Positions 4,980-64,000 are shown, numbered from the stretch's first letter. The stretch: DNA of 64,000 nt from an uncultured Acidobacteriota bacterium (GCA_963770895.1 CAVYRF010000001.1:352001-416000), one strand, 5' to 3'. Program-made: numbers and translations. Notes: generated by a model from the sequence alone, not told the origin.

Positions 4980-5028
4980 CTTTGTTGACGATGTGTCACT
5001 TGGCGGAGGCAGCGAGGCGATAGAGTTT

Positions 5029-6261: not shown

Positions 6262-6361
6262 CGTGGTACTCCTGTGACGATTTTACCGTTTGTTGCAAGA
6301 GCTGTGCAACCTGGCCGGATCGCTCCGATTGCTCCGGTAGAGAGCGCTCATCTTAACTTTT

Positions 6362-24041: not shown

Positions 24042-27000
24042 ATGGTTGTGAGCGGGGTGGATCTCAGAGAGTCGATGGTTGAGCAGGCTACGCTTGCGTG
24101 GCTGGAGGCGCTAGGTTATGTCGTGCTTCGCGGCCCGCAGATCGCCGCGGGCGAACCCGGCGCCGAGCGTAGCGACCCACGCTACCGCGACGTGGTGTTG
24201 GAGCGCCGCCTGCGGCAGGCGCTCGTCCGGCTGAATCCCGACCTGCCCTCGTCGGCGCTGGAGGATGCATTCCTGAGGCTTACCCGTCCCGATGCGGTGT
24301 CGCTGTTGGAACGCAACCGTGCAACGCACCGGATGCTGGTGGAGGGCGTCACGGTTGAGTACCGGCGGGCTGACGTCTCGATCGCTGGCGCCCAGGCACG
24401 GGCGATCGACTTCGACCTTCCAAACAACAACGACTGGCTGGCTGTTAATCAGTTCACCGTCGCGGAGGATGGGCACGTTCGCCGGCTCGACGTGGTGGTG
24501 TTCGTCAACGGCCTGCCTCTCGCAGTCATCGAGCTCAAGAGCGCTTCCGACGCGAGCGCCACGATCTGGAACGCCTTCCGGCAGCTCGAAACCTACCAGG
24601 CGGAGATCCCTTCGCTCTTTGCCTACAACGCGGCGCTCGTCATCTCCGACGGCGTACAGGCCCGCCTCGGAGCGCTTGGCGCTGGGAGGGAATGGTTCAA
24701 GCTTTGGCGGACGATCAGTGGCCGAGACGACGACGTGGCGGCGTTCCTGCCTGAGCTCCAGGTTGTCTTGGAAGGAGTGTTCGAGAAGCATCGTTTCCTC
24801 AATTTTCTGCGCTACTTCATTGTCTTCGAGGATCTGGGTGGTGGAGCGCTGGCCAAGAAGATTGCGGCCTACCACCAATTCCATGCTGTGAACTGGGCGG
24901 TAGAAGAGACCCTGCGAGCCGCACAAAGAGTAATGGCGGAATGGGTCGCCGAAGGCCCGGGACGCTACGAGTCGGGACGGCGGCGTGGCGGTGCCCCTGG
25001 TGACCACCGTGTGGGAGTCGTATGGCACACGCAGGGCTCGGGCAAGAGCCTCACCATGGCCTTCTACGCGGGACGAGTGATTTTGCATCCGGAGATGGAG
25101 AACCCCACGCTTGTGGTGCTCACCGACCGCAACGATCTTGACGACCAGCTCTTCGGAATCTTCGCCCGATGCCGCGACCTGCTGCGCCAGCCGCCGGTGC
25201 AGGCGACGAGCCGCTCTGACCTGCGCAGGAAGCTGGGCGTGGGTGGCGGAGGAGTCGTGTTCACGACGATCCAGAAGTTCTTTCCGGAGGCTAGGGGTGA
25301 CCGGCAGCCGGTGCTCTCGGAGCGCCGCAACGTCGTTGTGATCGCCGACGAGGCACACCGCAGCCAATACGACTTCATCGACGGTTTTGCCCGGCACATG
25401 CACGACGCTCTGCCGAACGCGTCGTTCATCGGCTTCACTGGGACCCCCATTGAGACGACCGACGCGAACACGCGCGCCGTCTTTGGCGACTACATCAGCG
25501 TCTACGACATCCGGCGGTCGGTATTCGACGGGGCCACCGTTCCCATCTACTACGAGAGCCGGCTCGCGAAGCTGGAGCTCAAGCAGTCCGAGCGCCTGAG
25601 GATCGACGCCGACTTCGAGGATGTCACCGAGGGAGAAGAGGTCGAGCGCAAGGAGAGGCTCAAGACGAAGTGGGCGCAACTCGAAAAGCTGGTGGGAGCC
25701 GAGAACCGGGTCCGACTCATCGCCAGCGACTTGGTGACTCACTTCGAGGAACGCCTGACGGCGCTGGACGGCAAGGCGATGATCGTGTGCATGAGCCGGC
25801 GCATCTGCGTCGAGCTCTATGGTCATCTCGTCGCGCTCCGGCCGGAATGGCACGACTCCGCGGACGAGCAGGGTGCGCTCAAGCTGGTGATGACAGGCGA
25901 TGCCTCCGACCCTGCGGACTGGCAGCGTCACATCCGCGGCAAAACTCGCCTCGAGGTGCTCGCCCAGCGTTTCCGCGATCCCGGTGACCCCTTCCAGATC
26001 GTCATCGTACGGGACATGTGGCTCACCGGGTTCGACGCACCGAGCCTTCACACCATGTACCTCGACAAGCCGATGCGTGGGCACGGCCTCATGCAGGCAA
26101 TCGCCCGCGTAAACCGGGTTTTCAAGGACAAGCCCGGAGGGCTGGTGGTGGATTACCTCGGCATCGCCGACGCTCTGAAGCAAGCCCTTGCGACCTATAC
26201 AGAGAGCGGCGGCACCGGCGATGCCGCGATCCCCCAGGCCGAAGCTGTCGCCCTGATGGTTGAGAAGTTGGAGGTGTGCAGGGCGCTCTTCCATGGCTTC
26301 GAACGCTTGCTCTGGATCGGGGGAACGCCACAGGAGCGCCTTGCCTTGCTGCCGCTGGCACAGGAGCATACGTTGGTGCAGAAAGATGGAAAGGATCGGC
26401 TCCTGCGCGCCGTCTCGGAGCTGACCCGAGCTTTTGCCCTTGCAGTGCCGCACCAGGATGCGCTCCGCGTTCGTGACGAAGTCGGATTCTTCCAGGCGGT
26501 GCGCGCAGCGGTGGCGAAGAGCGCGCCAGAGGAGAGCCGAACCGACGAGTATCTCGACCACGCGATCCGCCAGATCGTGTCGAGGGCAGTTGCATCCGGA
26601 GAGGTCGTGGACATCTTCGCCGCCGCGGGCCTCAAGAAACCGGACCTGTCGATCCTCTCGGACGAGTTCCTGGCCGAGGTGCGCGACATGCCGCAGCGCA
26701 ATCTCGCGGTTGAACTGCTGCGCAAGCTGCTCACAGGTGAGATCAGGTCCAGGTCACGGCGGAACGTCGTCCAGGCTCGCTCTTTCGGAGACCTGCTAGA
26801 GCAGGCGGTGCGCCGCTACCAGAACCGGGCGATCGAGACGGCGCAGGTGATCGAGGAGCTGATCGCCCTCGCGAAGGAGATGCGGGAAGCGATCTCGCGC
26901 GGAGAGGAACTGGGTTTATCGGAGGACGAGCTCGCCTTTTACGACGCTCTCGAGACCAACGACAGCGCGGTCAAGGTGCTGGGCGAGCCGACTCTCAAAG

Positions 27001-27218
27001 CGATCGCCCGTGAGTTGGTGAAGACGGTGCGCGCGAATCTCACGATCGATTGGGCAGTGCGGGAGAACGTTCGCGCGCAGCTTCGAGTGGTGATCAAGCG
27101 CATCTTGCGGAGGTACGGCTATCCGCCCGACAAACAGGAGAAGGCCACGAAGACCGTGCTCGAGCAGGCGGAGGTGCTGTCGGAAGGATGGACGTCGGGG
27201 TTGCCTTCGAGGAACTGA
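24042..27218 (+). CDS. hsdR: Type I restriction subunit R
   Basis: Nuclease [37 protein letters not shown] and C-terminal YGYPPDKQ. Confidence 0.95.
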
Positions 27219-39084: not shown

Positions 39085-42000
39085 TCATTCGAAGTAACCG
39101 CTGGCGTCGAGAAGCAGATGCACACTGGCAACGGAAGTCTGCCCGAAGAGCACCGTCACCGCCCCCGCGGGTCCCAGGGCGCAGATCGCATTGTTGGCGC
39201 GGATCTGGCCGGGCGCGAAGTTCATGGTTGAAGTACTGACGACGTCGCCAGCGGGGTAGACGCTCAGGTAGCCGGGCGCGGTGGCGCCGACAATCGTGAT
39301 GTTAAGGGCTACTGCCTTGGCGCTTGCCGGGATGCCGCACTGGCCGGCGAGCGTGAACGAACGCGCTTCGCCTCCCTGAAGGGCCGGCCCGCCGTAGGCG
39401 CCCGCGGTGCCGCGCGTGTCCACGATTCGGCACGGTTCGAGCGTGTGGAACGACGTATTGCAGCGGCCGCCCACGGTGATGACCGCGCTGCCGGACGCCG
39501 TGCCCTGGCAGAAGGCATCTGACACGGTGGCGATCGAGTATGACGTTGCCGTGCCAGGCATCACCGCCCGATCGTCCGGACTGGCGCCGATTCCAGTCTG
39601 CACGTTGCCATCGGACCAGGTGACTCGCCACGGTGCCTCACCGGTGAGAGCGGCCTGGATGCTCGCCTGCCCGCTCGGGCAGATCTGCTGCGAGCCGCTG
39701 ACGAGCGCGGTGGGCAAGCTTCTGACCAGCACCTTGGTGGTGGCCGGCTGCGAGCTGCAACCGCCCACCGTGGTCGTGACCCTGTAGGTCCCTGACGCGC
39801 CTGGCTGTGCCCCGGTCAGCAGCGGATTCTGACTGCTCGACGAGAAGCCGCCGGGCCCCTGCCACGAGTAGGAGGTGGCGCCCGCCACCGCACCGGCCGT
39901 CAGCTGAACGTCCTGGCCGGCACATGCCGGCCCGTTGTTGCCGGCCGTGGGCGGCGCCGTTGTGTTGACCGTGATGACTGCGGCGCCTGATGCGGTGCCC
40001 GTGCAGTAGCTGTCGGAAACGCTGGTAACGGTGTAGGTCGTGGTCGACGCGGGCTGCACGACCCGGCTTGCCGGGCTGGCGGCGGTCGCCGGCTCGCTGA
40101 CACCATCAGACCAGTTGACAGCCCAGGGTGCGGCACCCGTCAAGGCCGCCTGGACGGTACTCGACGCCCCGGCGCAGATTTGGGCGCTACCGCTCACCGC
40201 GGCTGTCGGCAGCGATCGGACGACAACATTGGTTGTCGTCGCCTGGGAGACGCAGCCGTTGACGGTGGCGGTGACGCTGTAAGCGCCTGATGCCGTGGCC
40301 GGCGCGGCGGCCAGCAAGGGATTTTGCGCCGAGGATGTATAGCCCCCTGGACCGGTCCACTGATAGGTCGCGTTGGCGATGTCTGCCGCGCTGAGCTGCA
40401 CATTCTGGCCGGCGCATGCCGGGCCGCTGTTCGCAGGCGCCGGCCCGGCGGGGGCGCTGACCACCACGGTCGCAGTGGCCGCGAGGCTGCAACTCCCTGC
40501 CTGCAGCGTCACTGTATAGACGCCCGAGGCGGCGGTCGTGGCCTGCGGCAGCGTCGGGTTTTGCAGGTTCGAACTGAAGCCGTTGGGGCCGCTCCATGAG
40601 TAGGTTGCTCCCGCGAGCCCCGTGGCGCTGAGTTGCAGGCTCTGCCCGGGGCAAAGCGGCGCATTGCTGGACACCGTGGGGGGCTCGACGAACTCGCACA
40701 GGAAGCCGAAGGCCCCGCTCAGCGTGGCGGCGCCGGCGCCGCCCGGATTGTTCACCGTCACATCCACCTGACCGGTGCCGTTCGGCGGCGTGATCGCGAA
40801 CAGACGACTGCTGCTCACAAAGATCACGCGCGCCGCCGGTGCGCCGCCAAAGGTGACCGTCGCACCCGCCTTGAATCCGCTGCCCAGGAGCATCACCTGG
40901 TCGCCGCCGCGGCTATCGCCGATGCCTGGAGCCACCGCCGTGATGCTCACGCCGCGCACGTCGTCGCTCGCGTTGGTGGGGTCCCGTCCGTTGTCAACCT
41001 CCGAACCGTCGCTCTCGCCGCCACCGTCCGAGTCGGCGACATGGGGGTCCGTGCCGTGGCGATATTCCTCGACATTGCTCAACCCGTCACCGTCAGGGTC
41101 CATATAGGCATCGCCGGCGTCATTGGGATTCAAGCCGTGCGCCGTCTCCCAGGCGTCCGGCATGCCGTCGCCATCGCTGTCCGTGACCTTCTGCACGCTG
41201 CCGCCATAGACCGCTTGGGACGCTGCGCCGTTGCTCACCAGGGCATAGACGTGATAGGTGCCGTCCGCCAGCGCGCTCATGTCCCAGGTATAGCTGGTCG
41301 GTCCGTTCACTCCGCCAAGTCCGGCGACGATCGGCACCCCATTGAAACCATTTCCCAGCTGGTCGTAGAAGAGATCGATCGTCGTGGCGCCATTGCCGTC
41401 GGCCAGGCTCCAGGCGAGGATGAAGCTGCTCGCCGAAGTGGCCGTGATGGTGACCGGACTGATCCAGGTGAAGCCCGGGCTGGCATCGCTCTCGAAAACC
41501 AGCCAGCTCCAGTAAGGGCCGGTCGTCACCACCGTCGGTGAAAACCTGCCGGCAAGCTGCGGGCCGGCGGCAGTCTCCATCGTGACCCGCAGGTTCTGGA
41601 GCGAATAGGGCCCTGGTCTCCCGCCGTGATAGAGCTGCTGGCCGCTGAACACCAGGGTCAGCGGCTGCGGGCCGCTCCCGGTTGGATCGATCGCCGTTTC
41701 CGCCGAAGCGACGACGGTGCCATCCGGCGCGGCGAGATCGCCGAAGGCGACATAGTGGCCGGCCCCCGGCACGTCGACGGTGAAAGACCAGTTCACGGAG
41801 TCGAAAAGCCCGTTGCCGTTGACGTCGGGAGCGCTTTCCGTGAAGCCGCCGTCGAGGACGACCTGCGGCGTGCCGACCGCGATGGTGCCGCTCTGGTAGC
41901 GCTGATACTGCCCCAGGTCCGACGATCCCGCCGCCGTGACGGCCAGGACGAATGCGCCGGGGGCGCCCAACGTCGTACTGCCGCCATACACGCCGTCGCC

Positions 42001-45000
42001 GGCCGCACCGTCGCCGTGCGCGCCGTCGTCGTACAGCGAAAACGTCTGCGCCGCCCCGCCGGCTACGGGCGTCAGCGTCACCGTGAGCACCGCTCCCGTC
42101 ATGGCCGTGCCGTTCTCGTCGAGCGTGGCGCTGACGTTGAGCGTATCCCCGACGAGGTACGACAACGCTGCAACGTTCACCCGCAAGCGGATCGGGGATC
42201 GCATGGCGACCGTCGCCGTCCAGGATGCTCCTGCGGGCGAGACATTGGGTCCCGTGCCGCCGTTGGCCGCGGCAACGTTGAGCGTCCATATTCCTGGTAC
42301 TGGTTGGTGAAGTATCAGCGTCTGGCGATTTTGTGTTGCCGACGATGTGACCTGATACTGGCTCGCCAGATTGTCCACCGAAAGCGCTGAATAGACGGTT
42401 CCGTTCGGATCCGCCACCGTCACCAGCGGATCGGCACCGTCGGTCAGGACGCTGAGCGTCAAGTCTGTCGCCCCATCCACCATCACTGGCACGGATGCCG
42501 ACGGCGTCGCCGCCGTCAAGGAACCGCCGAAAGTGGACGCGGGCCGCAGGTCGAAGGCCGGAGAAAGGGTTGCGTCGCGGCTGACGGATGAGGTCCCGGC
42601 GATACGATCGCGGCCGGCGCCGGCCTGGCAGACCGTGTTGTCGATCTCGGTGCAAAGCGTTGGCTTCACGGCGCCGTCGTACAGGGCCGCCCAGACCGCC
42701 GGATTGGCGATGACTTTGGAGTGCAGGACCGAATTGCTCTGCGGGGTCAACTGCAGAATCGCCAGGAGCAGGTCGACGATCTCCGACGGCGCCAGGCTGG
42801 GGAGAATGGAGACAACTTGCGCCGGCTGGACGTTGCCGCCCTGCTCGATCAACAGATCGGCCTGGTCGCCGGCTCCCGGCAACCACTCCTGGCTGGCCAG
42901 GTCGACGACGTCGTCGGACCCGCTGAAGGTCGTCGTCACCTGAGCGCTCGCGGTCACGCTCGCCGAAAGCGACAGGCTCGGAGCTGGCAGGTCGACGACG
43001 GTGTATTGCCGCTGGGTGCCGATTGGATAGATCCGCGTTGCCGGGCTGTTCCTCGGCGGGTACTTTTGATTGAAGATGCTTGCCTGCGCGGCATGGAAAT
43101 TGGGCAATGCGGCGTCCTGCCACCAGGTCGAGGGCAGGCAGGAGGCGACGTTGCCGGACTCGATCGTCAGCGCCTCTGCCTCGGGATGGAGGTACCACTG
43201 ATCGAATGCCAGCTCAAACGGCTGCGCTCCCAGATGAGGAGTGTCAAGGGTGAGGATCGCACCGACATTCTGCGGGCAGGCCAGCGTGCCGCCCGCGCCG
43301 CAAGCCGCATAGGCGCGTGCGATCATGCCGCCATAGCTATGACCGATCAGGATCAGCGACTGCGCGTTCGCCAGGTACGACCGCGTGGAGATATAGCCGG
43401 TGAGCGCTGCCACGTTGTCCTCGACACCTTCCTTGCCATTGAGCGTGTCGACCACGCACACGTGATCGTGGGGCGCGTCCGGTTGCGTGTCGTCGGGGCA
43501 CGAAGTGACCGCGGCAGACGCGCATGACGGCGAGGCGCCAAAAAAATCGTTCTGGATCTGGCATTCGATCTGCGCCACCGGCGGACTCTGGCCGCTGAAC
43601 TGAGAGCTGCGCCAGTACCCGGCGCCGGTGGCGCCTGCACTTGTCGGGGTATCGCACGGCGAGAAGTCGTAGCCCCGCAGCAGCAGCACGAACGGCGTGC
43701 CCACGGTCAGGATCGTGCCGAGCGGCGGGCCCATCCCCTCCGCGTCCGCCGCCTGCACGGAGACGGTATGGCCGCCGTCCGCCAATCCGCTGGTGGAGAC
43801 GATGAAGGTGGCCGAGGTGGCGCCTCCGGCCAGGGTCAGGGTCTGGCAGCTCGCCGAGCCGTCAAGGCAGAGCCTGGCGGCGTTCGCCGGCTTCGAGAAC
43901 GTGGCCACGACCGAGACCGTGCCGGCGCCCGAGGTCGGATTCGGCTGTGGATCGATGGCGGTCACCAGGACCGGGGCGGTGGTCGTGACGGTGATCTGGA
44001 TCGCCAGCGTGGTAGCGCACAGCGCATCGCTCATCTGCACCACGTCGACTCCCGCTGCGCTCCCCGCCGTATACGAAACGCCGGGCCCGGCGGTACCGGC
44101 CAGCGATCCGTTCGCCGGCTGCACCAGCGCCCACTGGTAGGATCCGGAACCGCCATATCCCTGGAGCTGCAGGGTCTGCCCGGCAAGAGCCGGAGGGTTC
44201 TTCGGCGACGCGGACAGCACGACGCCGGTGCAGTCGGTGGCGTTCACCACGACCGTGGCCGCCCCGGACGACGAGCCGCAGGTGCCGGTCAGCTGGAGCG
44301 TGTACATGCCCTGCACGTCGGGAACGAAGCTCGGCGCCGCCGTGGCTGCGCCGCTCAAAGTCGCGTTGGAACCCGGCGGCTTGGTGACGAACGTCCACAG
44401 CAGGGCGGGAGCACAGCCTGTCGAGGTCGCCGAGCCAGCGAGCGTCACGGCGGCCTCCACCTTCACGTTCTGGTTCTGCCCGGCGCTGACCGTCACCGGG
44501 CCGTACAGCTGCACACCACGAAGATAGAAGGTGTCGGTGATGCCATCGGACGGATCGACGTCGCAAGTGCCGTTCGCCGAAAATGGCGTCATCTGGTAGG
44601 TCTGTCCCGCGTGTAAGACGATCTGGTTCGCGCCCGAGAAGGTCTGGGTGATCTCTGTGTAGTTCGGATAGCCGAAGTACGAGCCGGCGCCGTCGCTGGT
44701 CGCCAGCAGCGTCGATCCGTCGCCGCTCCACACCTGGAAGTCGTTCGGCGGAATGCAGCTGCCGTTGCCGCAGATCGCCCAGAAATCCACCGAGGTGATC
44801 TGGAGGTCGATGTCCGGCACCACCGACACGTTGCCGTGACCGCAGTAGCCGCCGTCAAGTGGGCCGACGCTGAAGTCCGCGGCGATTCCGGGCGGGTGGG
44901 CGGCCACCACGAAATCGACGTTGCCCGCGGTGCCAAATTCCTGCCAGGCAGAAGCGTTGCCGCCGGGATCCACGACTCTGGCTTGCCAGTGATACTGCCC

Positions 45001-45801
45001 ATCCGCCAGGTTCCCCGAAGCCACACTCGCCACCGTTCCCGCGGGCACGAACCCGCTCGTCAGATTGGCCTTCCCCGTGAACGCCGTAGCGAAGGGCTGG
45101 AGCTCGATCTGCAGCTGTGCCGGGTCCACCTGCGATGCGCTTTCGACGCTGGCCGAGAAAATGACAAACTGCTCGGTGAGGCCCCGCCCCTCCGGGAATG
45201 GCGTTCCATCCGGCTTCTCCTGGACGAGGGAGAAAAAGTAGCTCTGGGGAGGCACGCCATAGATCTCGAAGAACTGGCCGGCGTACTGGCCCTGGTAGCT
45301 GCTTGCGGAAGCGAGCAGCGTGCCGGCGCCCTGTCCGGTTCCCCGCAGCACAAAGCTGTAACCAGTCCCGGGCACCAGGTTGATGCGATTGACTCCTACG
45401 AAGTTGACGCCGAACTCGGTGGTGAACGCGCCGTTGAAAAATTGCAGCTCATTGACGGCCGAGGTCGCGAGGAGTTGACCGGTGTCCTGACGCCGGACCT
45501 CGACGTAGAACTGCGTAGGCTGCGGGTTTTCTGCAAGAGACAGCCAGAGAAATATACTGTCCAGCTGCGCTTCATTCGTGGTGACGACCGTTGAAGTGAT
45601 CGTGCCGTTGAACCAGCCCGCGAGCGTCAGGTCGACGGTCGGTGCGTATCCCAGGCTCCCTTCAGCCATCCCGTCAGGAGTGCCTTGCGTTGCCCAGACT
45701 ACCGATCCAGTCTGCCCCAGGGCACTCCGCCAGGCTGGTGAGCAGAGCAGGCCCATCATCATCAACAACGGCGCCGAGGATCGGAGCAAGCGGTGGATCA
45801 T
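39085..45801 (-). CDS. Giant secreted multidomain surface protein with a lipase-like alpha/beta hydrolase core
   Basis: Signal peptide, Ig/PKD-like domains, GHSYGG + TPHLG + DDVV + H, LYDDGAHGDGAAGDGVY, Asp-rich DSDGDG repeats, an IPT/TIG domain, repeated Cys-containing Ig units and a C-terminal CRIVDTR...DASGYF domain. Confidence 0.85.
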   Translation of the reverse strand: MIHRLLRSSAPLLMMMGLLCSPAWRSALGQTGSVVWATQGTPDGMAEGSLGYAPTVDLTLAGWFNGTITSTVVTTNEAQLDSIFLWLSLAENPQPTQFYVEVRRQDTGQLLATSAVNELQFFNGAFTTEFGVNFVGVNRINLVPGTGYSFVLRGTGQGAGTLLASASSYQGQYAGQFFEIYGVPPQSYFFSLVQEKPDGTPFPEGRGLTEQFVIFSASVESASQVDPAQLQIELQPFATAFTGKANLTSGFVPAGTVASVASGNLADGQYHWQARVVDPGGNASAWQEFGTAGNVDFVVAAHPPGIAADFSVGPLDGGYCGHGNVSVVPDIDLQITSVDFWAICGNGSCIPPNDFQVWSGDGSTLLATSDGAGSYFGYPNYTEITQTFSGANQIVLHAGQTYQMTPFSANGTCDVDPSDGITDTFYLRGVQLYGPVTVSAGQNQNVKVEAAVTLAGSATSTGCAPALLWTFVTKPPGSNATLSGAATAAPSFVPDVQGMYTLQLTGTCGSSSGAATVVVNATDCTGVVLSASPKNPPALAGQTLQLQGYGGSGSYQWALVQPANGSLAGTAGPGVSYTAGSAAGVDVVQMSDALCATTLAIQITVTTTAPVLVTAIDPQPNPTSGAGTVSVVATFSKPANAARLCLDGSASCQTLTLAGGATSATFIVSTSGLADGGHTVSVQAADAEGMGPPLGTILTVGTPFVLLLRGYDFSPCDTPTSAGATGAGYWRSSQFSGQSPPVAQIECQIQNDFFGASPSCASAAVTSCPDDTQPDAPHDHVCVVDTLNGKEGVEDNVAALTGYISTRSYLANAQSLILIGHSYGGMIARAYAACGAGGTLACPQNVGAILTLDTPHLGAQPFELAFDQWYLHPEAEALTIESGNVASCLPSTWWQDAALPNFHAAQASIFNQKYPPRNSPATRIYPIGTQRQYTVVDLPAPSLSLSASVTASAQVTTTFSGSDDVVDLASQEWLPGAGDQADLLIEQGGNVQPAQVVSILPSLAPSEIVDLLLAILQLTPQSNSVLHSKVIANPAVWAALYDGAVKPTLCTEIDNTVCQAGAGRDRIAGTSSVSRDATLSPAFDLRPASTFGGSLTAATPSASVPVMVDGATDLTLSVLTDGADPLVTVADPNGTVYSALSVDNLASQYQVTSSATQNRQTLILHQPVPGIWTLNVAAANGGTGPNVSPAGASWTATVAMRSPIRLRVNVAALSYLVGDTLNVSATLDENGTAMTGAVLTVTLTPVAGGAAQTFSLYDDGAHGDGAAGDGVYGGSTTLGAPGAFVLAVTAAGSSDLGQYQRYQSGTIAVGTPQVVLDGGFTESAPDVNGNGLFDSVNWSFTVDVPGAGHYVAFGDLAAPDGTVVASAETAIDPTGSGPQPLTLVFSGQQLYHGGRPGPYSLQNLRVTMETAAGPQLAGRFSPTVVTTGPYWSWLVFESDASPGFTWISPVTITATSASSFILAWSLADGNGATTIDLFYDQLGNGFNGVPIVAGLGGVNGPTSYTWDMSALADGTYHVYALVSNGAASQAVYGGSVQKVTDSDGDGMPDAWETAHGLNPNDAGDAYMDPDGDGLSNVEEYRHGTDPHVADSDGGGESDGSEVDNGRDPTNASDDVRGVSITAVAPGIGDSRGGDQVMLLGSGFKAGATVTFGGAPAARVIFVSSSRLFAITPPNGTGQVDVTVNNPGGAGAATLSGAFGFLCEFVEPPTVSSNAPLCPGQSLQLSATGLAGATYSWSGPNGFSSNLQNPTLPQATTAASGVYTVTLQAGSCSLAATATVVVSAPAGPAPANSGPACAGQNVQLSAADIANATYQWTGPGGYTSSAQNPLLAAAPATASGAYSVTATVNGCVSQATTTNVVVRSLPTAAVSGSAQICAGASSTVQAALTGAAPWAVNWSDGVSEPATAASPASRVVQPASTTTYTVTSVSDSYCTGTASGAAVITVNTTAPPTAGNNGPACAGQDVQLTAGAVAGATSYSWQGPGGFSSSSQNPLLTGAQPGASGTYRVTTTVGGCSSQPATTKVLVRSLPTALVSGSQQICPSGQASIQAALTGEAPWRVTWSDGNVQTGIGASPDDRAVMPGTATSYSIATVSDAFCQGTASGSAVITVGGRCNTSFHTLEPCRIVDTRGTAGAYGGPALQGGEARSFTLAGQCGIPASAKAVALNITIVGATAPGYLSVYPAGDVVSTSTMNFAPGQIRANNAICALGPAGAVTVLFGQTSVASVHLLLDASGYFE

Positions 45802-46197
45802 CGAAAGATTACCTCGCTGGGGCGGCACAATGGTCCAGAAAAAGGCACCTGCCCCGATAAACCTGCCGATCACCTGTCTGTCAGACTTTGTAGTTTATGC
45901 TAGAACACCGACAGCTTAAGAGTCAACGGGAATTGGGGGCGATATCCGCCGCTCACAGGCTGGAGCGAAGTGCCATGGCGAATGCGCGCAGCATCGGGCG
46001 GCGCTGGTTGGTGGGCGCTGTGACGTTGGCGGCGGCGCTCGTCGCCTGGGGGGCTCTCCCGATTGGTGCAACGCGGGCGGCGGCCGGTCGATCCGGAGTC
46101 GTTGTTTCGCATCGCCAGCTGCCGTGCGGCAGTGGCCCGGCTGAGCTATGATTCAAGTCGGTTCTGTCGCGGCACTGGCTGCCGCTAGGGCGCATCT

Positions 46198-58672: not shown

Positions 58673-59200
58673 ATGCGCAAATGGCTTGCAACCCTAGCAG
58701 GGGCGATGATCAGCGGGGTGGTAGTTTGGTACTTGACCAACGCCACCAGCATTCAAAATCTGGCGAGGAAGCCCGCTGACCCTGCCGGAGCTGAAAGAGG
58801 CGCGACGGCCATGGTACCCGCGCCTTCCCCAGCTCCCCAGCCCATCGAGCCTCCCCATGAAGTCTCGCCGCCCACGGACCCCGGCAAGGCAATCGCCACA
58901 AGACCGCGCGACAAGGGGGCGAGGGAACGGTTCTCCCGAAGCTTGACGCTGCATGACGGCGAACAGGAGGTTCTCCTCGACGGCCAGGCTTCCATTGGGG
59001 CTGACTTCACCGCCGTCGGCGGACTTAGAGTGGCAACCCTGCATGTGGGTTCCCCGGGAAAGGAAATCTCCAACCATGCGATCCTCAGTGCCGGCGAGCG
59101 CTTTGAGATCCATGCTTCGGGGCGGAACTATTACGTGTATGTCACCAAGCTCGATCTCGCGGCCATGACCATGCAGGTTACCATCGAAGAACAGCTTTGA
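58673..59200 (+). CDS. Hypothetical membrane-anchored protein
   Basis: GGAGGAG RBS, N-terminal TM, Pro-rich linker and beta domain. Confidence 0.7.
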   Translation: MRKWLATLAGAMISGVVVWYLTNATSIQNLARKPADPAGAERGATAMVPAPSPAPQPIEPPHEVSPPTDPGKAIATRPRDKGARERFSRSLTLHDGEQEVLLDGQASIGADFTAVGGLRVATLHVGSPGKEISNHAILSAGERFEIHASGRNYYVYVTKLDLAAMTMQVTIEEQL

Positions 59201-59219
59201 GCCTTATGGGGAAAGGACT

Positions 59220-60194
59220 ATGCGCCACTTTCGCGGAATATTGGTGACACTGATTGTCTTCGCTCTGCTCTCGATGACCGCACGGCGGGCGGCGGCCCAG
59301 AAAGGTCTCTACCAAGGCATCGACAGCTTGGCGGCCGCCATCCTTGAGAAAGTAACGCAGGAACAGAAACATAGAGTCGCCGTCCTTCCCTTCCACGAGA
59401 TGACCGGCCGCACGAGCGTTCTCGACTCTTATCTTTCGGAAGCCCTGCTGACCGAGCTGGTCCGCGCCGGCAAGGTCGAAGTTATCGAGCGCGCCATGCT
59501 CGATCGGTTGCTCGGCGAGATCAAGCTCGGCCAGACAGGGATCATTGACTCGGAGACGGCCAGGCGGGTCGGCAAGGTGGCGGGAGTCGACGCGATCGTA
59601 ACCGGCACAATTACGGAGCTGCGCACTTACCTTGCGGTGAACTGCCGCCTCATCGACACCCAGACGGGCCAGGTGTTTGCCGCGGCGCAAACCTGGATCA
59701 ACAAAGACAGCGACGTGATGGCCTTGCTGAACCAGCGCGACTCCGGCGGAGCGGAGCCGGCGACCGCTGAACGAGAACCGTCGAAAAAGACCGTGCCCAT
59801 TGCGCCGCCTCCGCTGCCACAAGCCGTCATCGAGCGCGATTGCATATTCCAATTAAAGGGCTGCACCCTCTTTGGTTCAACGCTCAAATGCGACATCCTC
59901 ATTACCGACAAGGGAGTCGACAGGACGCTAATCTTTGGCAAAAACGACCGCACAAGGATTATCGACGACAGCGGCCGAGAATATCGCGGCATTTCGTTTT
60001 CGATTGGCTCGCACAGCAACGACTACGCAGCACGAGGAAGTCTCACGACGGATGTTCCGATCAGGGGACAGCTTCAATTCGGCGGCTTGAGCGCGGCAGT
60101 ACGGAAGCTGTCGCTGCTTGAGTTTCACTACACCATGGACTACAACCATGGCATCTATAGCGGAGTAATCAGGTTTACAAACATCGCTCTCTGA
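59220..60194 (+). CDS. Secreted FlgO/CsgG-like (TolB-N fold) protein with C-terminal beta domain
   Basis: VAVLPF...VIERAMLDRLLGEIKL...GKVAGVDAIVTGT...RLIDTQTG. Confidence 0.75.
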   Translation: MRHFRGILVTLIVFALLSMTARRAAAQKGLYQGIDSLAAAILEKVTQEQKHRVAVLPFHEMTGRTSVLDSYLSEALLTELVRAGKVEVIERAMLDRLLGEIKLGQTGIIDSETARRVGKVAGVDAIVTGTITELRTYLAVNCRLIDTQTGQVFAAAQTWINKDSDVMALLNQRDSGGAEPATAEREPSKKTVPIAPPPLPQAVIERDCIFQLKGCTLFGSTLKCDILITDKGVDRTLIFGKNDRTRIIDDSGREYRGISFSIGSHSNDYAARGSLTTDVPIRGQLQFGGLSAAVRKLSLLEFHYTMDYNHGIYSGVIRFTNIAL

Positions 60195-60262: not shown

Positions 60263-61273
60263 TCAGCACGAGTAGACGAGCCGGGCGATCACGGCATCCC
60301 AGGCGCGGCTCACGGCCAGCAGGTGCGCGGGCTGCTGCTCGGCGGGGGTGATGCCGCTGCGCACGTGGTCGACCAACCGATGCAGCGCAACGCGATTGGC
60401 CTGGTCGCGCTGCCACCAGAAAAACGCCCCCACGGTCGGCGGGGGGGATGCCGGTGCCAGGTCCGTCCAGGCAGGCAAGGCATTCACGCCGGCGCTGGCC
60501 GCTCCCGTGGCGATGGCGCCTCCCAGCGCTGCGATGGCAGGGATCCAGAGGACCGGACCGCTGGCCTCGCCCAGGAAGAGTGTCCCTTCTTCGAAGGTCG
60601 CCGTGACGCGATGGCTCACCCAGGCGCCGGAGCCGTCGTCGTCGGCCGTATCGAGGCGCAGGCACTGCAACGTGATGGCCACGCCGGCGACAGAGCCGTC
60701 GATGGACAGCAGCGGCATGTCTGACGGCGCGGCGGCGTCCGTCGCGGCGCCATGCAACCGCAGCGCCGCGAGCCCGCCCAGTGCCCGGGCGATCAGGTCG
60801 AGGCCCGAGTAGAGAGCGCGCGAATTGGTGGCCAGCGACAGGTGGCGGAGGCGCGTGCGCTGGCGCAGGGCGGCACAATGGGCGAGGAACCGCTGCGGCA
60901 GCTCGCAGTCCCCGTAGTGGGAGTTGACGTGCAGGACGAGGCGCCGGCCGACCGCCTCACCGAGGAGCGCCGCGAGCGCCGCCTCGGTCAGCGGGTGCTC
61001 GATCAGCACGTGGGCGCCGCGGCGGAGGAAGCCCAGGGCCAGGTCGCAGCCGGCTTGGCCGCTCACCGCGACGCAGGCCAGATCGACGCTGCCCGCCGGC
61101 ACCTGCCGCGGCTCCCGATAGAGCGGCACACCGAGCTGGGAGGCCAGGTGCCGCGACCGCTCCGAGCCGCGGGCGAGCAGGCCGACGAGCCGCAGCCCGT
61201 CCGGGTGCGGCCAGGGGCTGAGGGCGCGCAGGTAGGCCGAGCCGTACAGCGTGCCGCAGAGGAGGACCCGCAT
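60263..61273 (-). CDS. PchG/Irp3-like thiazolinyl imine reductase (Gfo/Idh/MocA fold)
   Basis: VLLCGT.YG..Y, GLLARGSERS..LA..LGVPLY, DLACVAV, HVLIEHPL, VNSHY and GPVLWIP match the PchG/Irp3 pattern. Confidence 0.8.
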   Translation of the reverse strand: MRVLLCGTLYGSAYLRALSPWPHPDGLRLVGLLARGSERSRHLASQLGVPLYREPRQVPAGSVDLACVAVSGQAGCDLALGFLRRGAHVLIEHPLTEAALAALLGEAVGRRLVLHVNSHYGDCELPQRFLAHCAALRQRTRLRHLSLATNSRALYSGLDLIARALGGLAALRLHGAATDAAAPSDMPLLSIDGSVAGVAITLQCLRLDTADDDGSGAWVSHRVTATFEEGTLFLGEASGPVLWIPAIAALGGAIATGAASAGVNALPAWTDLAPASPPPTVGAFFWWQRDQANRVALHRLVDHVRSGITPAEQQPAHLLAVSRAWDAVIARLVYSC

Positions 61274-61296
61274 GGCGCTCTCGGTGGCGGTGCCGC

Positions 61297-62067
61297 TCAG
61301 GCCGGCAGGCCGGCACACGCCAGGTAGACCGCGTCCTCCTCGCCCGCCGGCAGGTCGAGGAGCCGGTTGACCTCCTGGTCCAGGAAGCCGCCGATCACCA
61401 CTGCCGCCAGGTCCATGGCGGTCGCGACCAGGCAGAGGTTCTGGCCGACGTGGCCGGCCTCGAGCCAGACGTAGCGGTAACCACGCTGGCCGTATTTCCA
61501 GGTGGTGCGCGCAAAGATCGCGGTCAGGCAGACAAACAGGTTGGCGTCGCGCAGCAGATCCTGCCCCAGCGCCAGGTTGGCAAGCTCGGCGTGCAGCGCG
61601 CCGCGCCGGCGCAGTGCGAGCTGGTGCGTCCAGGGGTCGTAATGGTAGAGCCCGTCGGCGAGCCCCTCCACGCGCTGCGCGGCGACGTAGAGCTCCAGCG
61701 GGTGCAGGGCGCCGGCCGAAGGGAACGGGCGGTCGTCCGCCACCGCGCCCTCGACCTGCAACATGCCCTTGACCCCGAATGCGGCGTGCAGCAGGCGACC
61801 CAGGGTCGCGAGCGGCAGCTCTCCCTGCCGGAAGTCGCGCCGCGAGCGCCGGCCGGCCAGGGTCTCGCCGAGCGGCCGCGGGAGAGCGAAGTCGCGGCCG
61901 GAAAGCTGCACGCGCTCGGCACCCAGGTAGAGGCGCCGCTGCCCAGGGCGATCCTGCCCGGCTGCGAGATCCGGCAGCTTGGCGCGGCTGTTCGAGGAGT
62001 TGAGGTGGTAGAGGCGGGCGAGATCCACTTCGCGGGTGCTGGGCATCGTCGCGTCCCTTCGGGGCAT
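61297..62067 (-). CDS. SagB/ThcOx-family azoline dehydrogenase
   Basis: RRSRRDF, RPFPSAGALHPLELY, GLYHYDP and KYGQRGYRYVWLEAGHVGQN. Start is 62067 (TGATG coupling) or 62046. Confidence 0.9.
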   Translation of the reverse strand: MPRRDATMPSTREVDLARLYHLNSSNSRAKLPDLAAGQDRPGQRRLYLGAERVQLSGRDFALPRPLGETLAGRRSRRDFRQGELPLATLGRLLHAAFGVKGMLQVEGAVADDRPFPSAGALHPLELYVAAQRVEGLADGLYHYDPWTHQLALRRRGALHAELANLALGQDLLRDANLFVCLTAIFARTTWKYGQRGYRYVWLEAGHVGQNLCLVATAMDLAAVVIGGFLDQEVNRLLDLPAGEEDAVYLACAGLPA

Positions 62068-64000
62068 CAGGCGAGGGGGTGCGGCTGGGGATTGACGCCG
62101 CGCGGGCCGAGCAGCGCCGCGAGGCGCGGGTTGGCCAGCCGCCGCAGGCGCTCGCCGAAGTGGATCGGCTGCACGTCGGTGCCTAGCGCCCGGGCGACCC
62201 GGAAGGGACTCAGCGCCACGTCCGGCGAGGTGACGTCGACGATCGCCACCCGCACCCCCGCCGCTGCCAGCCTCTCCGCGCAACCCGCCAGGGTCGGCGC
62301 GGCGGCGACCGGCAGGTCGGCCAGACGCAGCGGCTCGCCGCCGCCCACGCGCAACGTGTCGAGCAGCGGCAGGCGCTCGACAGGCGCGTAGTAGAGGGCA
62401 TGATCGTCGAGGCTCTGCACCTGGTCCGGCGAGGCGGGCGCGCGCTGGCCGCTGCGCATCAGCCCGGCGATGTAGGGGCCGACGTGCGCCAGTTCGAGCA
62501 GCGCCTTGCGCGCCGCCACCTGAGGGTCGACGTGGGTGGCCAGTGCCACCGCTGCGGCGGGCCAGCGCTCGCCGTCGCCCAGGCCCAGGCTCGCCACGGT
62601 CGGGATCCCCAGCCCGACGTCCAGGAGGTAGAGCTCCACGGCGACGCCGCGTTCGCCGAGCAGGCGCACGACCTCGGCCGCCGCCCCTTCGAATCCGCCG
62701 TCGTCGAAGCGCAGCGCGCGCCCGGGCAGCTGGCACAGCCAGCTCAGCATGAAGGCGTCCCGCTCCACCAGCTCGAAGAGAGCCCGCACTGCCGCGTCCT
62801 CGAGATCGCCGCCCGCCGCCAGGCCGTTGGAGGAGACCTGGCAGAAGAGCTCCTCGCGCGGCACCGCGAAGTTGAAGTAGGCCGTCAGCGCCGGCAGCCA
62901 GACCGCTTCCCGGTTGTCGATCCAGAAACCGCGCACCCAATGCTGGGGTCGGTCGGGGTCGAAGCGCGCGAACGGGAAGTCGGGTTCCTCGTAACGGCTC
63001 TCCTCGTAGAGGCAGAGCCGGCGGGGGTCGAGGGCCAGGTCGCCCAGCTCGTTGAACGACGCCACTTTCAGGTCCTGCTTGCGGTAGCGGGACGCCGAAT
63101 AGCGCTCGATCGCCTCGCCTGCCGCGCTCAACATCGCCTCGACCTCGGTGAGCCCCTTGCCCGAGCCGACCGGCGGGTCCGGGATGCCGCGCACCCGCCC
63201 ACCCTCCGTGTAGGCCGCGAGGATCGCCGTTGCCGTCCGCGGCAGCTCCGGCAAGGAGGGATCGGCCGGGTGCGCCTGGCCACAGGCCAGGGCGCGCAGG
63301 ACACCGGTGCGTGGATCGACCCATCCTGCGAGGAGCGCCTGCAGCTCCGCGACGCTCTGCACGCGCGCCAGGCTGCCCGAGGGGCCGGGCTGGCCCGGCC
63401 GGCCATCCTGGCCCGCCGCTGCCGGCGGTGCGACGGCGCCCCCCGGATTGCGGGAATCCTGCGCAGCCCCGCCGCAAACGTGGCACCAGGGCATCCTGAC
63501 CACCCCGTGGTGCGTGACGTCGGTTGTGATCAGGTTGTGGACGATGACGCGCCCTTGCAGGTGCGAGTGGGTGAAGGTGGTGAGCAGCTTCAGCGCTTCG
63601 ATGGCCATCAGCTGGCCGGCCACCGGCGCCATGGGCGCCAGGTAGCTGCGCGCGCGGCGCGCGGCCGGCGCTGCCACCAGCGACGCGTCGACCTCGTGCG
63701 CGACGAGAGGATGGTCGGCGGCGCCCAGGCGGCGCAGGCGGAAGCAATTCCAGCAGGCGGTCTGGCCGGGTACGACGGCCGGCCCGATCCAGGCTTCGAA
63801 GCCTTCGAGATGGCCGTACAACGAGCGCACGCCGACGCGGTGAGCGTACTCGGCCGCTTGCTGCAACCAGAACAGATCGTCGGCGGTGAGGCCGGTGACG
63901 ATCAGGTCCCAGGCGCCACCGGCCGGGCCGGGAGCGGCGGCAGGGCCGTCCCCGCGCAGGCATTCCAGGCTTTCCGCGCTCACCGCGCACCGGGGTGCGA
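62067..64000 (-). CDS. Fused TOMM cyclodehydratase (E1-like C domain + YcaO), 5' end outside window
   Basis: IGP.V.PGQTACWNC and PWCHVC in the C domain. GSGKG, GEAIERYS, SSNGLAAG and ELVERDA in YcaO. C-terminal PQPHPLA is the Pro-rich tail typical of azoline-forming YcaOs. Confidence 0.93.
   Translation of the reverse strand, partial: APRCAVSAESLECLRGDGPAAAPGPAGGAWDLIVTGLTADDLFWLQQAAEYAHRVGVRSLYGHLEGFEAWIGPAVVPGQTACWNCFRLRRLGAADHPLVAHEVDASLVAAPAARRARSYLAPMAPVAGQLMAIEALKLLTTFTHSHLQGRVIVHNLITTDVTHHGVVRMPWCHVCGGAAQDSRNPGGAVAPPAAAGQDGRPGQPGPSGSLARVQSVAELQALLAGWVDPRTGVLRALACGQAHPADPSLPELPRTATAILAAYTEGGRVRGIPDPPVGSGKGLTEVEAMLSAAGEAIERYSASRYRKQDLKVASFNELGDLALDPRRLCLYEESRYEEPDFPFARFDPDRPQHWVRGFWIDNREAVWLPALTAYFNFAVPREELFCQVSSNGLAAGGDLEDAAVRALFELVERDAFMLSWLCQLPGRALRFDDGGFEGAAAEVVRLLGERGVAVELYLLDVGLGIPTVASLGLGDGERWPAAAVALATHVDPQVAARKALLELAHVGPYIAGLMRSGQRAPASPDQVQSLDDHALYYAPVERLPLLDTLRVGGGEPLRLADLPVAAAPTLAGCAERLAAAGVRVAIVDVTSPDVALSPFRVARALGTDVQPIHFGERLRRLANPRLAALLGPRGVNPQPHPLA

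Follow-up and report, generated by a model that had tools for sequence, protein, structure and literature searches.

What does a thiazoline reductase of the kind found in NRPS siderophore pathways do next to a YcaO cyclodehydratase and a SagB dehydrogenase? The question is raised by a co-oriented minus-strand trio of genes, described from the outset as a fused YcaO, a SagB dehydrogenase and a PchG/Irp3-family reductase, at one end of the window (here, the whole 64,000-nucleotide stretch of DNA that was analyzed, from an uncultured Acidobacteriota bacterium). Reduction of the thiazoline C=N by PchG and Irp3 was reportedly established for the NRPS enzymes by Patel and Walsh in 2001. A full-text literature search retrieved no RiPP pathway with a thiazoline-reducing enzyme; in excerpts of PMC9811515 and PMC8842026, reduction is listed under NRPS and RiPPs appear with azol(in)es only. 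The operon points to thiazolidine rings, a modification so far undescribed for ribosomal peptides. Its four genes probably form a RiPP operon of the type that makes linear azol(in)e peptides (TOMMs), composed of promoter, precursor, hairpin, RRE/E1-fused YcaO, SagB and reductase, in the product of which thiazolines would be partly reduced to thiazolidines. Its features are given below in window positions, which equal positions in the extended contig sequence (L004) plus 57999 and are extrapolated beyond 64000:

60263 to 61273, minus strand: thiazolinyl reductase (PchG/Irp3/YbtU family; 336 aa), with which the operon ends
61297 to 62067, minus strand: SagB-type FMN azoline dehydrogenase, 256 aa
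62067 to 64000, on to extrapolated 64547 (L004 4068-6548), minus strand: fused RRE, E1/ThiF-like and YcaO cyclodehydratase, 826 aa from the conserved Met
about 64619 to 64655 (L004 6620-6656), minus strand: GC hairpin between the precursor and YcaO genes
about 64686 to 65135 (L004 6687-7136), minus strand: precursor gene P0001, a 150-aa Cys-rich ORF
about 65283 to 65311 (L004 7284-7312), minus strand: promoter-like site upstream of the precursor gene

The three genes of the window are as tightly packed as the original prediction had it: the YcaO stop codon overlaps the SagB start in TGATG at 62067, and a gap of 23 nt separates SagB from the reductase, which runs from an ATG at 61273-61271, the start common to its homologues, to a TGA at 60265-60263. 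The YcaO gene, which had been counted as part of 60263-64000, is present there but not complete, as the window end cuts it and the gene overruns this end by 547 nt. The hairpin, the precursor gene and the promoter-like site all lie past base 64000, i.e., outside the window. The promoter-like site reads TTGAGC-17-TATAAT with TG (10/12 matches; shuffles 0.1 +/- 0.4). The hairpin has a 14-bp stem (z -2.17), with equally good folding in 3 of 200 shuffles, and no T-run is found 3' of it.

All three enzymes score above the curated cut-offs of their families. The YcaO protein (826-830 aa in the genome) matches PF02624 (E 1.3e-67 for the window part, E 2.1e-67 at full length), TIGR03604 (236.3 bits, cut-off 219.25) and TIGR03882 (85.8 bits, cut-off 36.9), contains a ThiF-like part (E 3e-17) and ends in P-Q-P-H-P-L-A, in agreement with the fused C-D YcaO with a PxPxP tail that had been proposed. 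E-x-x-E-R, E-R-D, P-x-P-x-P (P826-H827-P828) and two CxxC pairs are invariant across 22 relatives. The closest PDB matches are LynD (E 1.2e-36), TruD (2e-34) and MusD (1.1e-27), and the order of RRE, E1-like and YcaO parts is that of MusD and the cyanobactin heterocyclases LynD, TruD and PatD. Residues 8-85 resemble the RRE protein PbtF (E 1.8e-5) and are predicted from sequence to bind a leader. The second protein is a SagB dehydrogenase, as expected (TIGR03605, 155.2 bits, cut-off 78.4; PF00881, E 3e-27), and its PDB relatives include CyaGox, McbC and BmdC. Its translation contains W-K-Y-G; a Lys-Tyr pair is required in SagB-type dehydrogenases.

The reductase had been called a Gfo/Idh/MocA protein with PchG/Irp3 hallmarks, and profile and structure comparisons lead to the same family. 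It passes the cut-off of TIGR01761 (thiaz-red; 205.9 bits, cut-off 188.8; 205.5 bits in the genome search) and consists of PF01408 (E 3e-16) and PF21390 (Irp3-like_C; 35.2 bits, cut-off 27) domains. Irp3/YbtU are its sole PDB sequence matches (E 2.4e-29, residues 2-330), and in a Foldseek search with its AF2 model (pLDDT 87) the first ten ranks are all taken by Irp3 chains (E 1e-25 to 9e-24, TM 0.82-0.85), the best non-Irp3 match being GenD2 (E 1e-13, TM 0.70). The protein thus does not group with sugar dehydrogenases, sugar and inositol dehydrogenases being much poorer fold matches (E 1e-13, TM <=0.71 versus E 1e-25, TM 0.85 for Irp3). The motifs ARGSERS, LACVAV, IEHPL and N-x-x-Y (NSHY) are all present in the translation, H93 and Y120 align with H101 and Y128 of Irp3, the NADPH-type motifs G-x3-G and R-G-S-x-R-S are kept, and E-H-P is invariant in 30/30 aligned rows. 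The E-H-P His and the N-x-x-Y Tyr of Irp3 are candidate catalytic residues, as reportedly described by Meneely and Lamb (2012/2016), with Tyr128 a candidate general acid.

As a hallmark, N-x-x-Y holds for this reductase but not for its clade: of the 24 YcaO-linked reductases aligned, 18 have Phe at the position of Tyr128, with an invariant His just before it, so that the clade may rely on a different proton donor or act on a different substrate. This bears on the reading that the operon does make a RiPP while its Irp3-like enzyme does not convert thiazoline to thiazolidine, acting instead on a (methyl)oxazoline or another YcaO-derived C=N, at one special position, or as an NADP+-dependent dehydrogenase. 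Besides the Phe, the clade-specific motifs D-D-G and N-x-R-x-L-Y-S, an identity to Irp3 of only 28-30%, the TIGR01761 scores of the proteobacterial clade mates (139-185 bits, under the cut-off of 188.8) and the 18 Thr of the core speak for such another reaction. We nevertheless consider it unlikely, since the whole fold, E-H-P and the cofactor motifs are kept and since a YcaO enzyme working on a Cys-rich core makes exactly the thiazoline C=N that is the substrate class of PchG and Irp3. The reductase also occurs together with SagB and is therefore not a mere substitute oxidase.

Thiazoline reduction with NADPH, by analogy with PchG (pyochelin) and Irp3/YbtU (yersiniabactin; PDB 4GMF, 4GMG, 5KVQ, 5KVS), would be the expected reaction; with these enzymes the protein shares the two-domain fold and an alignment over the full length that includes the E-H-P His, N-x-x-Y and the cofactor motifs. 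Unlike PchG and Irp3, it belongs to a separate clade, its gene follows YcaO, SagB and a ribosomal precursor instead of adjoining NRPS/PKS genes, and its substrate would be a free peptide and not a carrier-bound thioester.

A reductase of this family might also work in trans for an NRPS, as PchG and Irp3 do, with the YcaO neighborhood arising by chance. The genome is very NRPS-rich, with 321 condensation-type domain matches to a home-made HMM and 113 Pfam matches, and contains one TIGR01761 gene only, as well as a single Cy-type domain (D-x4-D-x2-S) at 3.90-3.92 Mb of contig 2. This is another contig than that of the operon, however, and no Cy-domain NRPS lies just upstream: NRPS genes are absent from the 60 kb of the window downstream and from 14 kb upstream, and the nearest condensation-domain ORF begins 27 kb beyond the precursor, which leaves none within 60 kb and 27 kb on the two sides. 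The reductase moreover ends a tightly packed operon and, as described below, its linkage to YcaO recurs in two phyla and its clade is separate from the NRPS-linked reductases, all of which makes service to an NRPS very improbable.

The linkage to YcaO is conserved. Among 26 genome loci found by the reductase profile, 24 have the fused YcaO directly upstream of the reductase (41-62% identity to the YcaO of the window), and SagB stands between the two in 10 of these. Across 301 genomes of a single family, sampled without selection, TIGR01761 had eight matches, five with YcaO directly upstream and three with an HMWP1-like synthase upstream. In the reductase trees, a single branch (FastTree 97; IQ-TREE SH-aLRT 94) sets the 24 YcaO-linked rows apart, and the NRPS-linked anchors from ybtU, Ralstonia and Streptomyces, which adjoin synthases, fall outside this clade. 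Seen from the YcaO side, 28 informative metagenome loci contain the reductase in 18 cases (14 with SagB, 4 without), SagB only in 7 and neither in 3. The loci stem from pattern-based scans that were seeded with the YcaO-linked clade, comprise close kin and some duplicates (identical rows in the YcaO tree), and are not independent. The YcaO family has a SagB-only form, a form with SagB and reductase (the operon described here, Acidobacteriota-like) and a form with reductase but no SagB (Proteobacteria). Loci of like architecture fall together in a single clade when the YcaO proteins are placed in a tree (SH-like support 95, 100, 99, 100). The dispensable partner is SagB and not the reductase, because the proteobacterial relatives have YcaO and reductase without SagB. 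In relatives without SagB, a conserved heme-binding protein (NF040572) adjoins the precursor, and the absence of SagB therefore need not mean absence of oxidation. An ABC exporter of the MacB type is encoded in the Shewanella loci.

No precursor is present in the window, as had been noted, and the sequence beyond base 64000 does contain one. The ORF directly upstream of YcaO, 686 nt past that base, is preceded by AGGAGA and encodes 150 aa with 28 Cys (mostly in CxxC spacing), 18 Thr and 4 Ser; its first Cys is residue 43, which leaves a leader of 42 residues. A Cys-rich ORF (14-72 Cys) occupies the equivalent place in 22/22 loci with enough upstream sequence, and a leader motif is common to about 20-21 alignable precursors. 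NCBIfam models, including those for NHLP, Nif11 and heterocycloanthracin, gave no family at E<=1 for three of four precursors and a chance-level Rad50 match (E 0.39) for the fourth; Pfam likewise gave none at E<=1 for three of five and chance-level matches for the other two. With 127-352 aa the precursors are protein-sized and CxxC is their dominant Cys spacing, which, together with the lack of a conserved dedicated leader protease or exporter in the SagB plus reductase form, would fit a mainly metal- or redox-active CxxC protein with few or no modified sites, i.e., a metallothionein-like protein tuned by the enzymes and no polyheterocycle. We regard this as improbable, as the precursors show the pattern of a RiPP, with a leader-like N-terminus that is conserved and, after it, a repetitive core that is hypervariable, and the RRE-like N-terminus of YcaO and the exporter of the Shewanella loci also argue against it.

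Taken as a RiPP precursor, the peptide can be compared with those of known systems. The LAP/TOMM synthetases of microcin B17 (McbBCD) and streptolysin S (SagBCD) likewise combine YcaO, an E1-like partner, SagB and a Cys-rich precursor with a leader; here, however, a single protein unites the E1-like and YcaO parts, an NADPH reductase is added, and the precursor greatly exceeds theirs in length and Cys content (up to 72 Cys in relatives), with no NCBIfam or Pfam precursor family. Some cyanobactins retain unoxidised thiazolines. In contrast to the cyanobactin pathways, a PatA/PatG-type protease or macrocyclase was not found among the profiled ORFs (14 kb upstream and 60 kb downstream), the core is one long repetitive stretch instead of short cassettes, and the operon includes a reductase. 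Heterocycloanthracin-type TOMMs reportedly have very Cys-rich repetitive cores beside YcaO/SagB genes, according to surveys by Haft (2009/2010) and the Mitchell group; they differ in that the precursors here lack an NCBIfam match, carry another leader motif, and come from Gram-negative hosts with a reductase. For YcaO cassettes of the NHLP-Burk type, Haft (2010) makes no mention of a reductase, and around one NHLP-Burk locus the queries used detected neither YcaO nor reductase within +/-10 kb.

The chemistry that we infer for the operon, including the choice of modified Cys, the share of rings oxidised or reduced and the biological function, would run as follows. The RRE at the N-terminus of the YcaO protein would bind the leader, which carries the conserved motif, the YcaO domain would use ATP to cyclodehydrate the 28 core Cys (perhaps some Thr) to thiazolines, SagB with FMN would oxidise part of these to thiazoles, and the PchG/Irp3-type enzyme with NADPH would turn others into thiazolidines by reducing their C=N. 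This would yield a long peptide dense in heterocycles, with oxidised as well as reduced rings, for which one might guess, from its N,S-donor rings and CxxC pattern, that it binds metal. On a wider view, which we hold to be as open to doubt as to belief, there would be an 'azolidine' RiPP family, in which 24-72 CxxC-spaced Cys become poly-thiazolines through a fused YcaO and interchangeable modules set the redox state: SagB only would give thiazoles, SagB with the Irp3-like reductase thiazoles and thiazolidines, and the reductase with the heme-binding protein mainly thiazolidines. This would be the first azoline reduction in RiPPs, by an enzyme taken over from the NRPS pathways of siderophores, and the resulting protein-sized chains of N,S-donor rings may be ribosomal metal chelators.

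If true, this would amount to a new post-translational modification of RiPPs, in which a backbone amide becomes a saturated N,S-heterocycle bearing a secondary amine, to a transferable pair of leader-guided enzymes with which thiazolidines could be introduced into genetically encoded peptides, and to an exchange of modules between NRPS and RiPP tailoring. The three architectures form a natural series on the control of ring oxidation state. The question is directly testable, since there are cultured, non-pathogenic carriers, going by their records, namely Shewanella abyssi DSM 17171, S. kaireitica DSM 17170, Marinomonas spartinae CECT 8886 and Undibacterium hunanense CY18W. The operon itself, whose closest relatives are found in Thermoanaerobaculia (Acidobacteriota), looks horizontally acquired. 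Its neighbors among the profiled ORFs are an S41 peptidase, a methyltransferase, a Vgb-lyase-like propeller and STAND and SIR2-TIR proteins in the 14 kb upstream, and a CsgG-like lipoprotein and an M1 peptidase downstream in the window.

At its end the window carries three co-oriented minus-strand genes, as the original prediction had it, and every motif named for them is found in the window translation. The operon is completed in L004, the genome locus that comprises the window end and the DNA beyond it (window position = L004 position + 57999; the window is C1:352001-416000 of the genome), where the Cys-rich precursor sought beyond base 64000 was found directly upstream of YcaO (P0001).

Genes and predicted control elements of the operon
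L004 7312-7284, minus strand: promoter-like site TTGAGC-17-TATAAT with TG, 148 nt before the ATG of P0001
L004 6687-7136 (beyond the window end), minus strand: precursor P0001, 150-residue ORF
Between P0001 and YcaO, minus strand: 14-bp GC hairpin (z-score -2.17; 3 of 200 shuffles fold equally well)
Cut by the window end, minus strand: fused cyclodehydratase (YcaO), first enzyme gene (TIGR03604, 236.3 bits, cut-off 219.25)
Window 61297-62067, minus strand: SagB-type dehydrogenase, middle gene (TIGR03605, 155.2 bits, cut-off 78.4)
Window 60263-61273, minus strand: reductase with Gfo/Idh/MocA fold, 336 aa, last gene

The observations confirm a RiPP operon with a siderophore-type reductase and, within the reach of sequence analysis, support its interpretation as a putative azoline-RiPP pathway with a recruited azoline reductase. 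In its overall working the operon resembles a LAP/TOMM pathway, to whose plan it adds an NRPS-type tailoring reductase, and its fused YcaO resembles the cyanobactin heterocyclases (best PDB matches LynD, TruD, and MusD). The full YcaO in the genome has 826-830 aa, also matches TIGR03882 (85.8 bits vs a cut-off of 36.9), includes a ThiF/E1-like part (E 3e-17) and has an N-terminus that resembles the RRE protein PbtF (E 1.8e-5). With the stop of YcaO and the start of SagB sharing the sequence TGATG, and 23 nt between SagB and the reductase, the three enzyme genes look like one translationally coupled unit. The G+C content around the operon at the window end is about 70-74%. Seven sequencing runs contain part of the operon, each less than half of its words, and no RNA run was among the matches listed. 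A complex predicted between the reductase and YcaO residues 250-830 scored 0.00, which speaks neither for nor against an interaction.

P0001 is present in one copy in the genome and has the ribosome-binding site AGGAGA; 135 nt separate its end from the YcaO start downstream. Its residues 1-42 are free of Cys and the remaining 108 contain 28, with 18 of the 27 Cys-Cys gaps two residues long (CxxC) and Pro (12 times) or Gln (six times) most often preceding the Cys. No family in NCBIfam or Pfam matched P0001 and a sequence search for relatives returned two matches only, both "hypothetical protein"; synteny is the better way to find this precursor family. The NHLP-Burk model TIGR03795 had no match in four carrier genomes and exceeded its cut-off in one of 151 genomes of one family, at a locus where neither YcaO nor the reductase was matched within about 10 kb. 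The promoter-like site is the sole one of its kind in 1.1 kb (shuffles give 0.1), and the hairpin, at which there is no T-run, appears akin to the leaky terminators known from other RiPP operons.

The assignment of the last gene to the siderophore-type thiazoline reductases was weighed against a grouping with sugar dehydrogenases, which was not borne out, Irp3 being the best match by sequence and by fold. The protein contains PF01408 (E 3e-16) and the Irp3-like C-terminal domain PF21390 (35.2 bits, cut-off 27), and passes the NCBIfam model for thiazolinyl imide reductase, TIGR01761 (205.9 bits, cut-off 188.8). Irp3/YbtU are its sole sequence relatives in the PDB (E 2.4e-29, residues 2-330 aligned). 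A fold search with an AlphaFold2 model (23 homologues, pLDDT 87.1) gave Irp3 chains as its first ten matches (E 1e-25 to 9e-24, TM 0.82-0.85), whereas the best non-Irp3 folds (GenD2, inositol and other sugar dehydrogenases) reached only E 1e-13 and TM values of at most 0.71. The E-H-P His and the N-x-x-Y Tyr have as aligned counterparts Irp3 H101 and Y128, for which Meneely and Lamb reportedly proposed roles. Among the YcaO-linked reductases, the equivalent of Tyr128 is Phe in 18 of 24, an invariant His stands just before this position, and D-D-G and N-x-R-x-L-Y-S occur as motifs specific to the clade. Compared with Irp3, these enzymes may use another proton donor or hold the substrate in another pose; in Irp3 itself, hydride transfer precedes protonation by a general acid (PMC7465668).

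Homologues of the reductase numbered 24 at E<=1e-10 in a set of 5.8 billion proteins (best 83%, next at most 56%); they come mostly from metagenomes, and the source records of several call them thiazolinyl reductase. A profile of 23 homologues was scanned against one genome per species, followed by tblastn and ORF clustering, and gave 26 loci, which are no measure of the whole family since the search pattern came from this clade. The conserved linkage to YcaO, whose absence was to refute the interpretation, holds in 24 of them, where a fused YcaO with 41-62% identity to that of the window lies directly upstream of the reductase. It also holds for five of the eight TIGR01761 matches in an unselected survey of 301 genomes (a Burkholderiaceae-level family around one carrier), two of the five being already among the 26 loci: these five, at 139-185 bits, all have YcaO directly upstream, and the other three, at about 430 bits, each lie downstream of an HMWP1-like synthase. 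SagB lies between YcaO and reductase in 10 of the 24 loci, all from Acidobacteriota and mostly from Thermoanaerobaculia MAGs; the 14 in which no SagB lies within the locus are all from Pseudomonadota (Shewanella, Marinomonas, Undibacterium, Burkholderiaceae, and Lysobacterales). A very Cys-rich ORF stands just before YcaO in all 22 loci with enough upstream sequence. Two of these ORFs are cut by a contig end and were left out of the alignment; the 20 aligned precursors have 24-72 Cys in 127-352 aa and share with the window precursor the leader motif K-D/E-L-x-[IVL]-x-[IVL]-T-E-L, after which CxxC repeats follow that are unalignable among precursors. The operon for this putative azoline RiPP with a recruited reductase is conserved across at least two phyla, and its cultured carriers include Shewanella abyssi DSM 17171, Marinomonas spartinae CECT 8886 and Undibacterium hunanense CY18W.

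There are two exceptions among the 26 loci. In L041 (Bryobacteraceae MAG, 4728-10936) the reductase gene points away from two others, one for a TonB-dependent-receptor-like outer-membrane protein of 1106 aa and one for a YcaO of another kind, 619 aa long; with its uptake-type gene, this is a second type of YcaO-reductase neighborhood. In L039 (Desulfobulbus) the reductase adjoins a phosphopantetheinyl transferase at the contig end. A further locus, L042 (Thermoanaerobaculia MAG, 9205-10970), has a reductase in two overlapping ORFs and a partial SagB match, so either this copy is frameshifted or the assembly is wrong; it was omitted from the reductase trees because its reductase is in two pieces.

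These trees were anchored with NRPS-linked reductases whose annotated records show the neighboring genes: irp1 for ybtU, a synthase and a salicylate synthase for a Ralstonia gene, and two NRPSs for a Streptomyces gene. The trees also took up to 150 representatives from a search of 1.84 billion proteins, which had yielded 376 representative TIGR01761-like proteins at E<=1e-30. In the FastTree phylogeny (181 rows) a branch with support 97 sets the YcaO-linked reductases apart, in a clade of 45 rows (24 YcaO-linked and 21 unlabelled representatives), and in IQ-TREE (77 rows) the corresponding branch has an SH-aLRT of 94. The anchors, L039 and L041 lie outside it.

Approached from the other side, a scan of metagenome contigs with a YcaO profile gave 36 loci, 34 of them close relatives; these contigs partly duplicate MAG loci (identical tree rows), and such kin are not independent. 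The reductase is present in 18 of the 28 informative loci, either as precursor-YcaO-SagB-reductase (14 of 34) or as precursor-YcaO-reductase (four). Seven loci have YcaO and SagB and lack a reductase in the 858 nt or more that follow, three have a YcaO with neither partner, and six are too short to tell. The SagB-only relatives keep the leader motif and have shorter cores, with 13-17 Cys in 86-107 aa. The YcaO tree (46 rows) contains one clade per architecture: SagB plus reductase (23 rows, support 95), reductase without SagB (15 rows, support 100), SagB only (five rows, support 99) and neither partner (two rows, support 100). The window YcaO nests among Thermoanaerobaculia, its nearest relative being 63% identical.

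From the observed parts list and its conservation we infer the enzymatic steps on the peptide: the precursor leader would bind the RRE, YcaO with ATP would cyclodehydrate Cys to thiazoline, SagB (FMN) would take some rings to thiazole, and the Irp3-like enzyme (NADPH) would take other rings to thiazolidine. The architecture series fits two alternative or complementary tailoring enzymes that would act on one YcaO intermediate. In 10 of the 14 SagB-less loci a heme-binding protein lies right upstream of the precursor.

Heme-binding proteins (347-417 aa) in SagB-less loci
L024 5141-6268
L030 4980-6233
L040 5199-6242
Seven further proteobacterial loci

These proteins match NF040572 (heme_bind_FMP; 233-242 bits, cut-off 150) and are related to FMP-type peroxidases, and may be oxidative tailoring enzymes; none was found in the source genome. 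ORF clustering of the loci revealed no protease or exporter conserved with the SagB-plus-reductase form; a MacB-type ABC system is present in the Shewanella loci. As a candidate leader protease, the S41 peptidase at L004 7371-8837 was rejected, having no tblastn match at E<=1e-5 in the 26 and 36 loci, and none of the remaining L004 ORFs grouped with ORFs of three or more loci. The peptidase and a nearby methyltransferase are treated as unrelated neighbors.

A client of the NRPS type also has to be considered, and a nearby NRPS with Cy domains had been named as what would explain the reductase otherwise. No NRPS-like genes occur in the window or in the 14 kb upstream of the operon, which hold the S41 peptidase, the methyltransferase, a Vgb-lyase-like propeller, a STAND-WD40 protein and a SIR2-TIR protein. 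The nearest C-domain ORF on the same contig begins 27 kb beyond the precursor. The source genome (8.16 Mb) is extraordinarily rich in NRPS (e.g., at C2:4068172-4095366 and C2:239876-263401), with 113 Pfam Condensation matches in 111 scored of 297 candidates, 321 C-type domain matches to an HMM trained on a dozen of the genome's C domains, and open frames of up to 12,745 aa. The Cy signature D-x4-D-x2-S, which replaces HHxxxDG, occurs in one domain only (C2 3901916-3923020). Given this NRPS richness and the one Cy-type domain on contig 2, a trans-acting NRPS role of the reductase in the source strain is formally conceivable, though improbable in view of the conserved linkage to YcaO.

In the full-text literature, a body outside which most subscription journals and supplements lie, we found no paper linking a PchG/Irp3-type reductase or thiazolidine formation to YcaO or RiPPs. 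In passages of two reviews (PMC9811515; PMC8842026), thiazolidine formation by reduction is listed for NRPS alone, and the words "reductase" and "oxidoreductase" are absent from the main text of the 2015 TOMM survey and likewise from Haft et al. (2010). A passage of a 2025 preprint ties PF21390 to its literature function without RiPP context. The architecture might have been described before, perhaps in cluster tables in the supplements of TOMM surveys (e.g., Cox et al., 2015).

As to the origin of the operon, 40 relatives reaching down to order level yielded no reductase orthologue and only matches that are weak and partial (best E 4.6e-8), and no TIGR01761 match at E<=1e-20 was found in 400 other genomes sampled from the phylum. 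Together with the defense genes and the low-G+C patch nearby, this makes horizontal acquisition from an Acidobacteriota-like donor the simplest reading. The defense-type genes flanking the operon suggest a variable genomic region: a type I restriction R subunit (window 24042-27218) and, beyond the window end (L004 12321-18343), a 1444-aa STAND NTPase with WD40 repeats and a 638-aa SIR2-TIR fusion. The low-G+C patch (window 58673-60194, 0.587 vs about 0.70-0.74 around it) contains two genes, neither of which is kept with the operon in related loci: one, convergent with the reductase gene, encodes a CsgG/FlgO-like lipoprotein of 324 aa, and the other is a 175-aa ORF without family. In a same-genus relative, 29 residues in a 44-aa frame (G002:C81:119776-119862) are 66% identical to the reductase C-terminus and may be a remnant of the gene. 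On the same strand, 3 kb upstream of the precursor (L004 10172-12172, beyond the window end), lies a gene for a 666-aa protein with a strong match to the Virginiamycin B lyase family (PF24684, E 2e-116), which is not kept in related loci. The 2262-aa product of a minus-strand ORF (window 39085-45873) combines a PGAP1-like hydrolase segment with Ig-like, TSP3, IPT/TIG, and PKD-like repeats; rather than an NRPS, it is probably a large protein of the cell surface.
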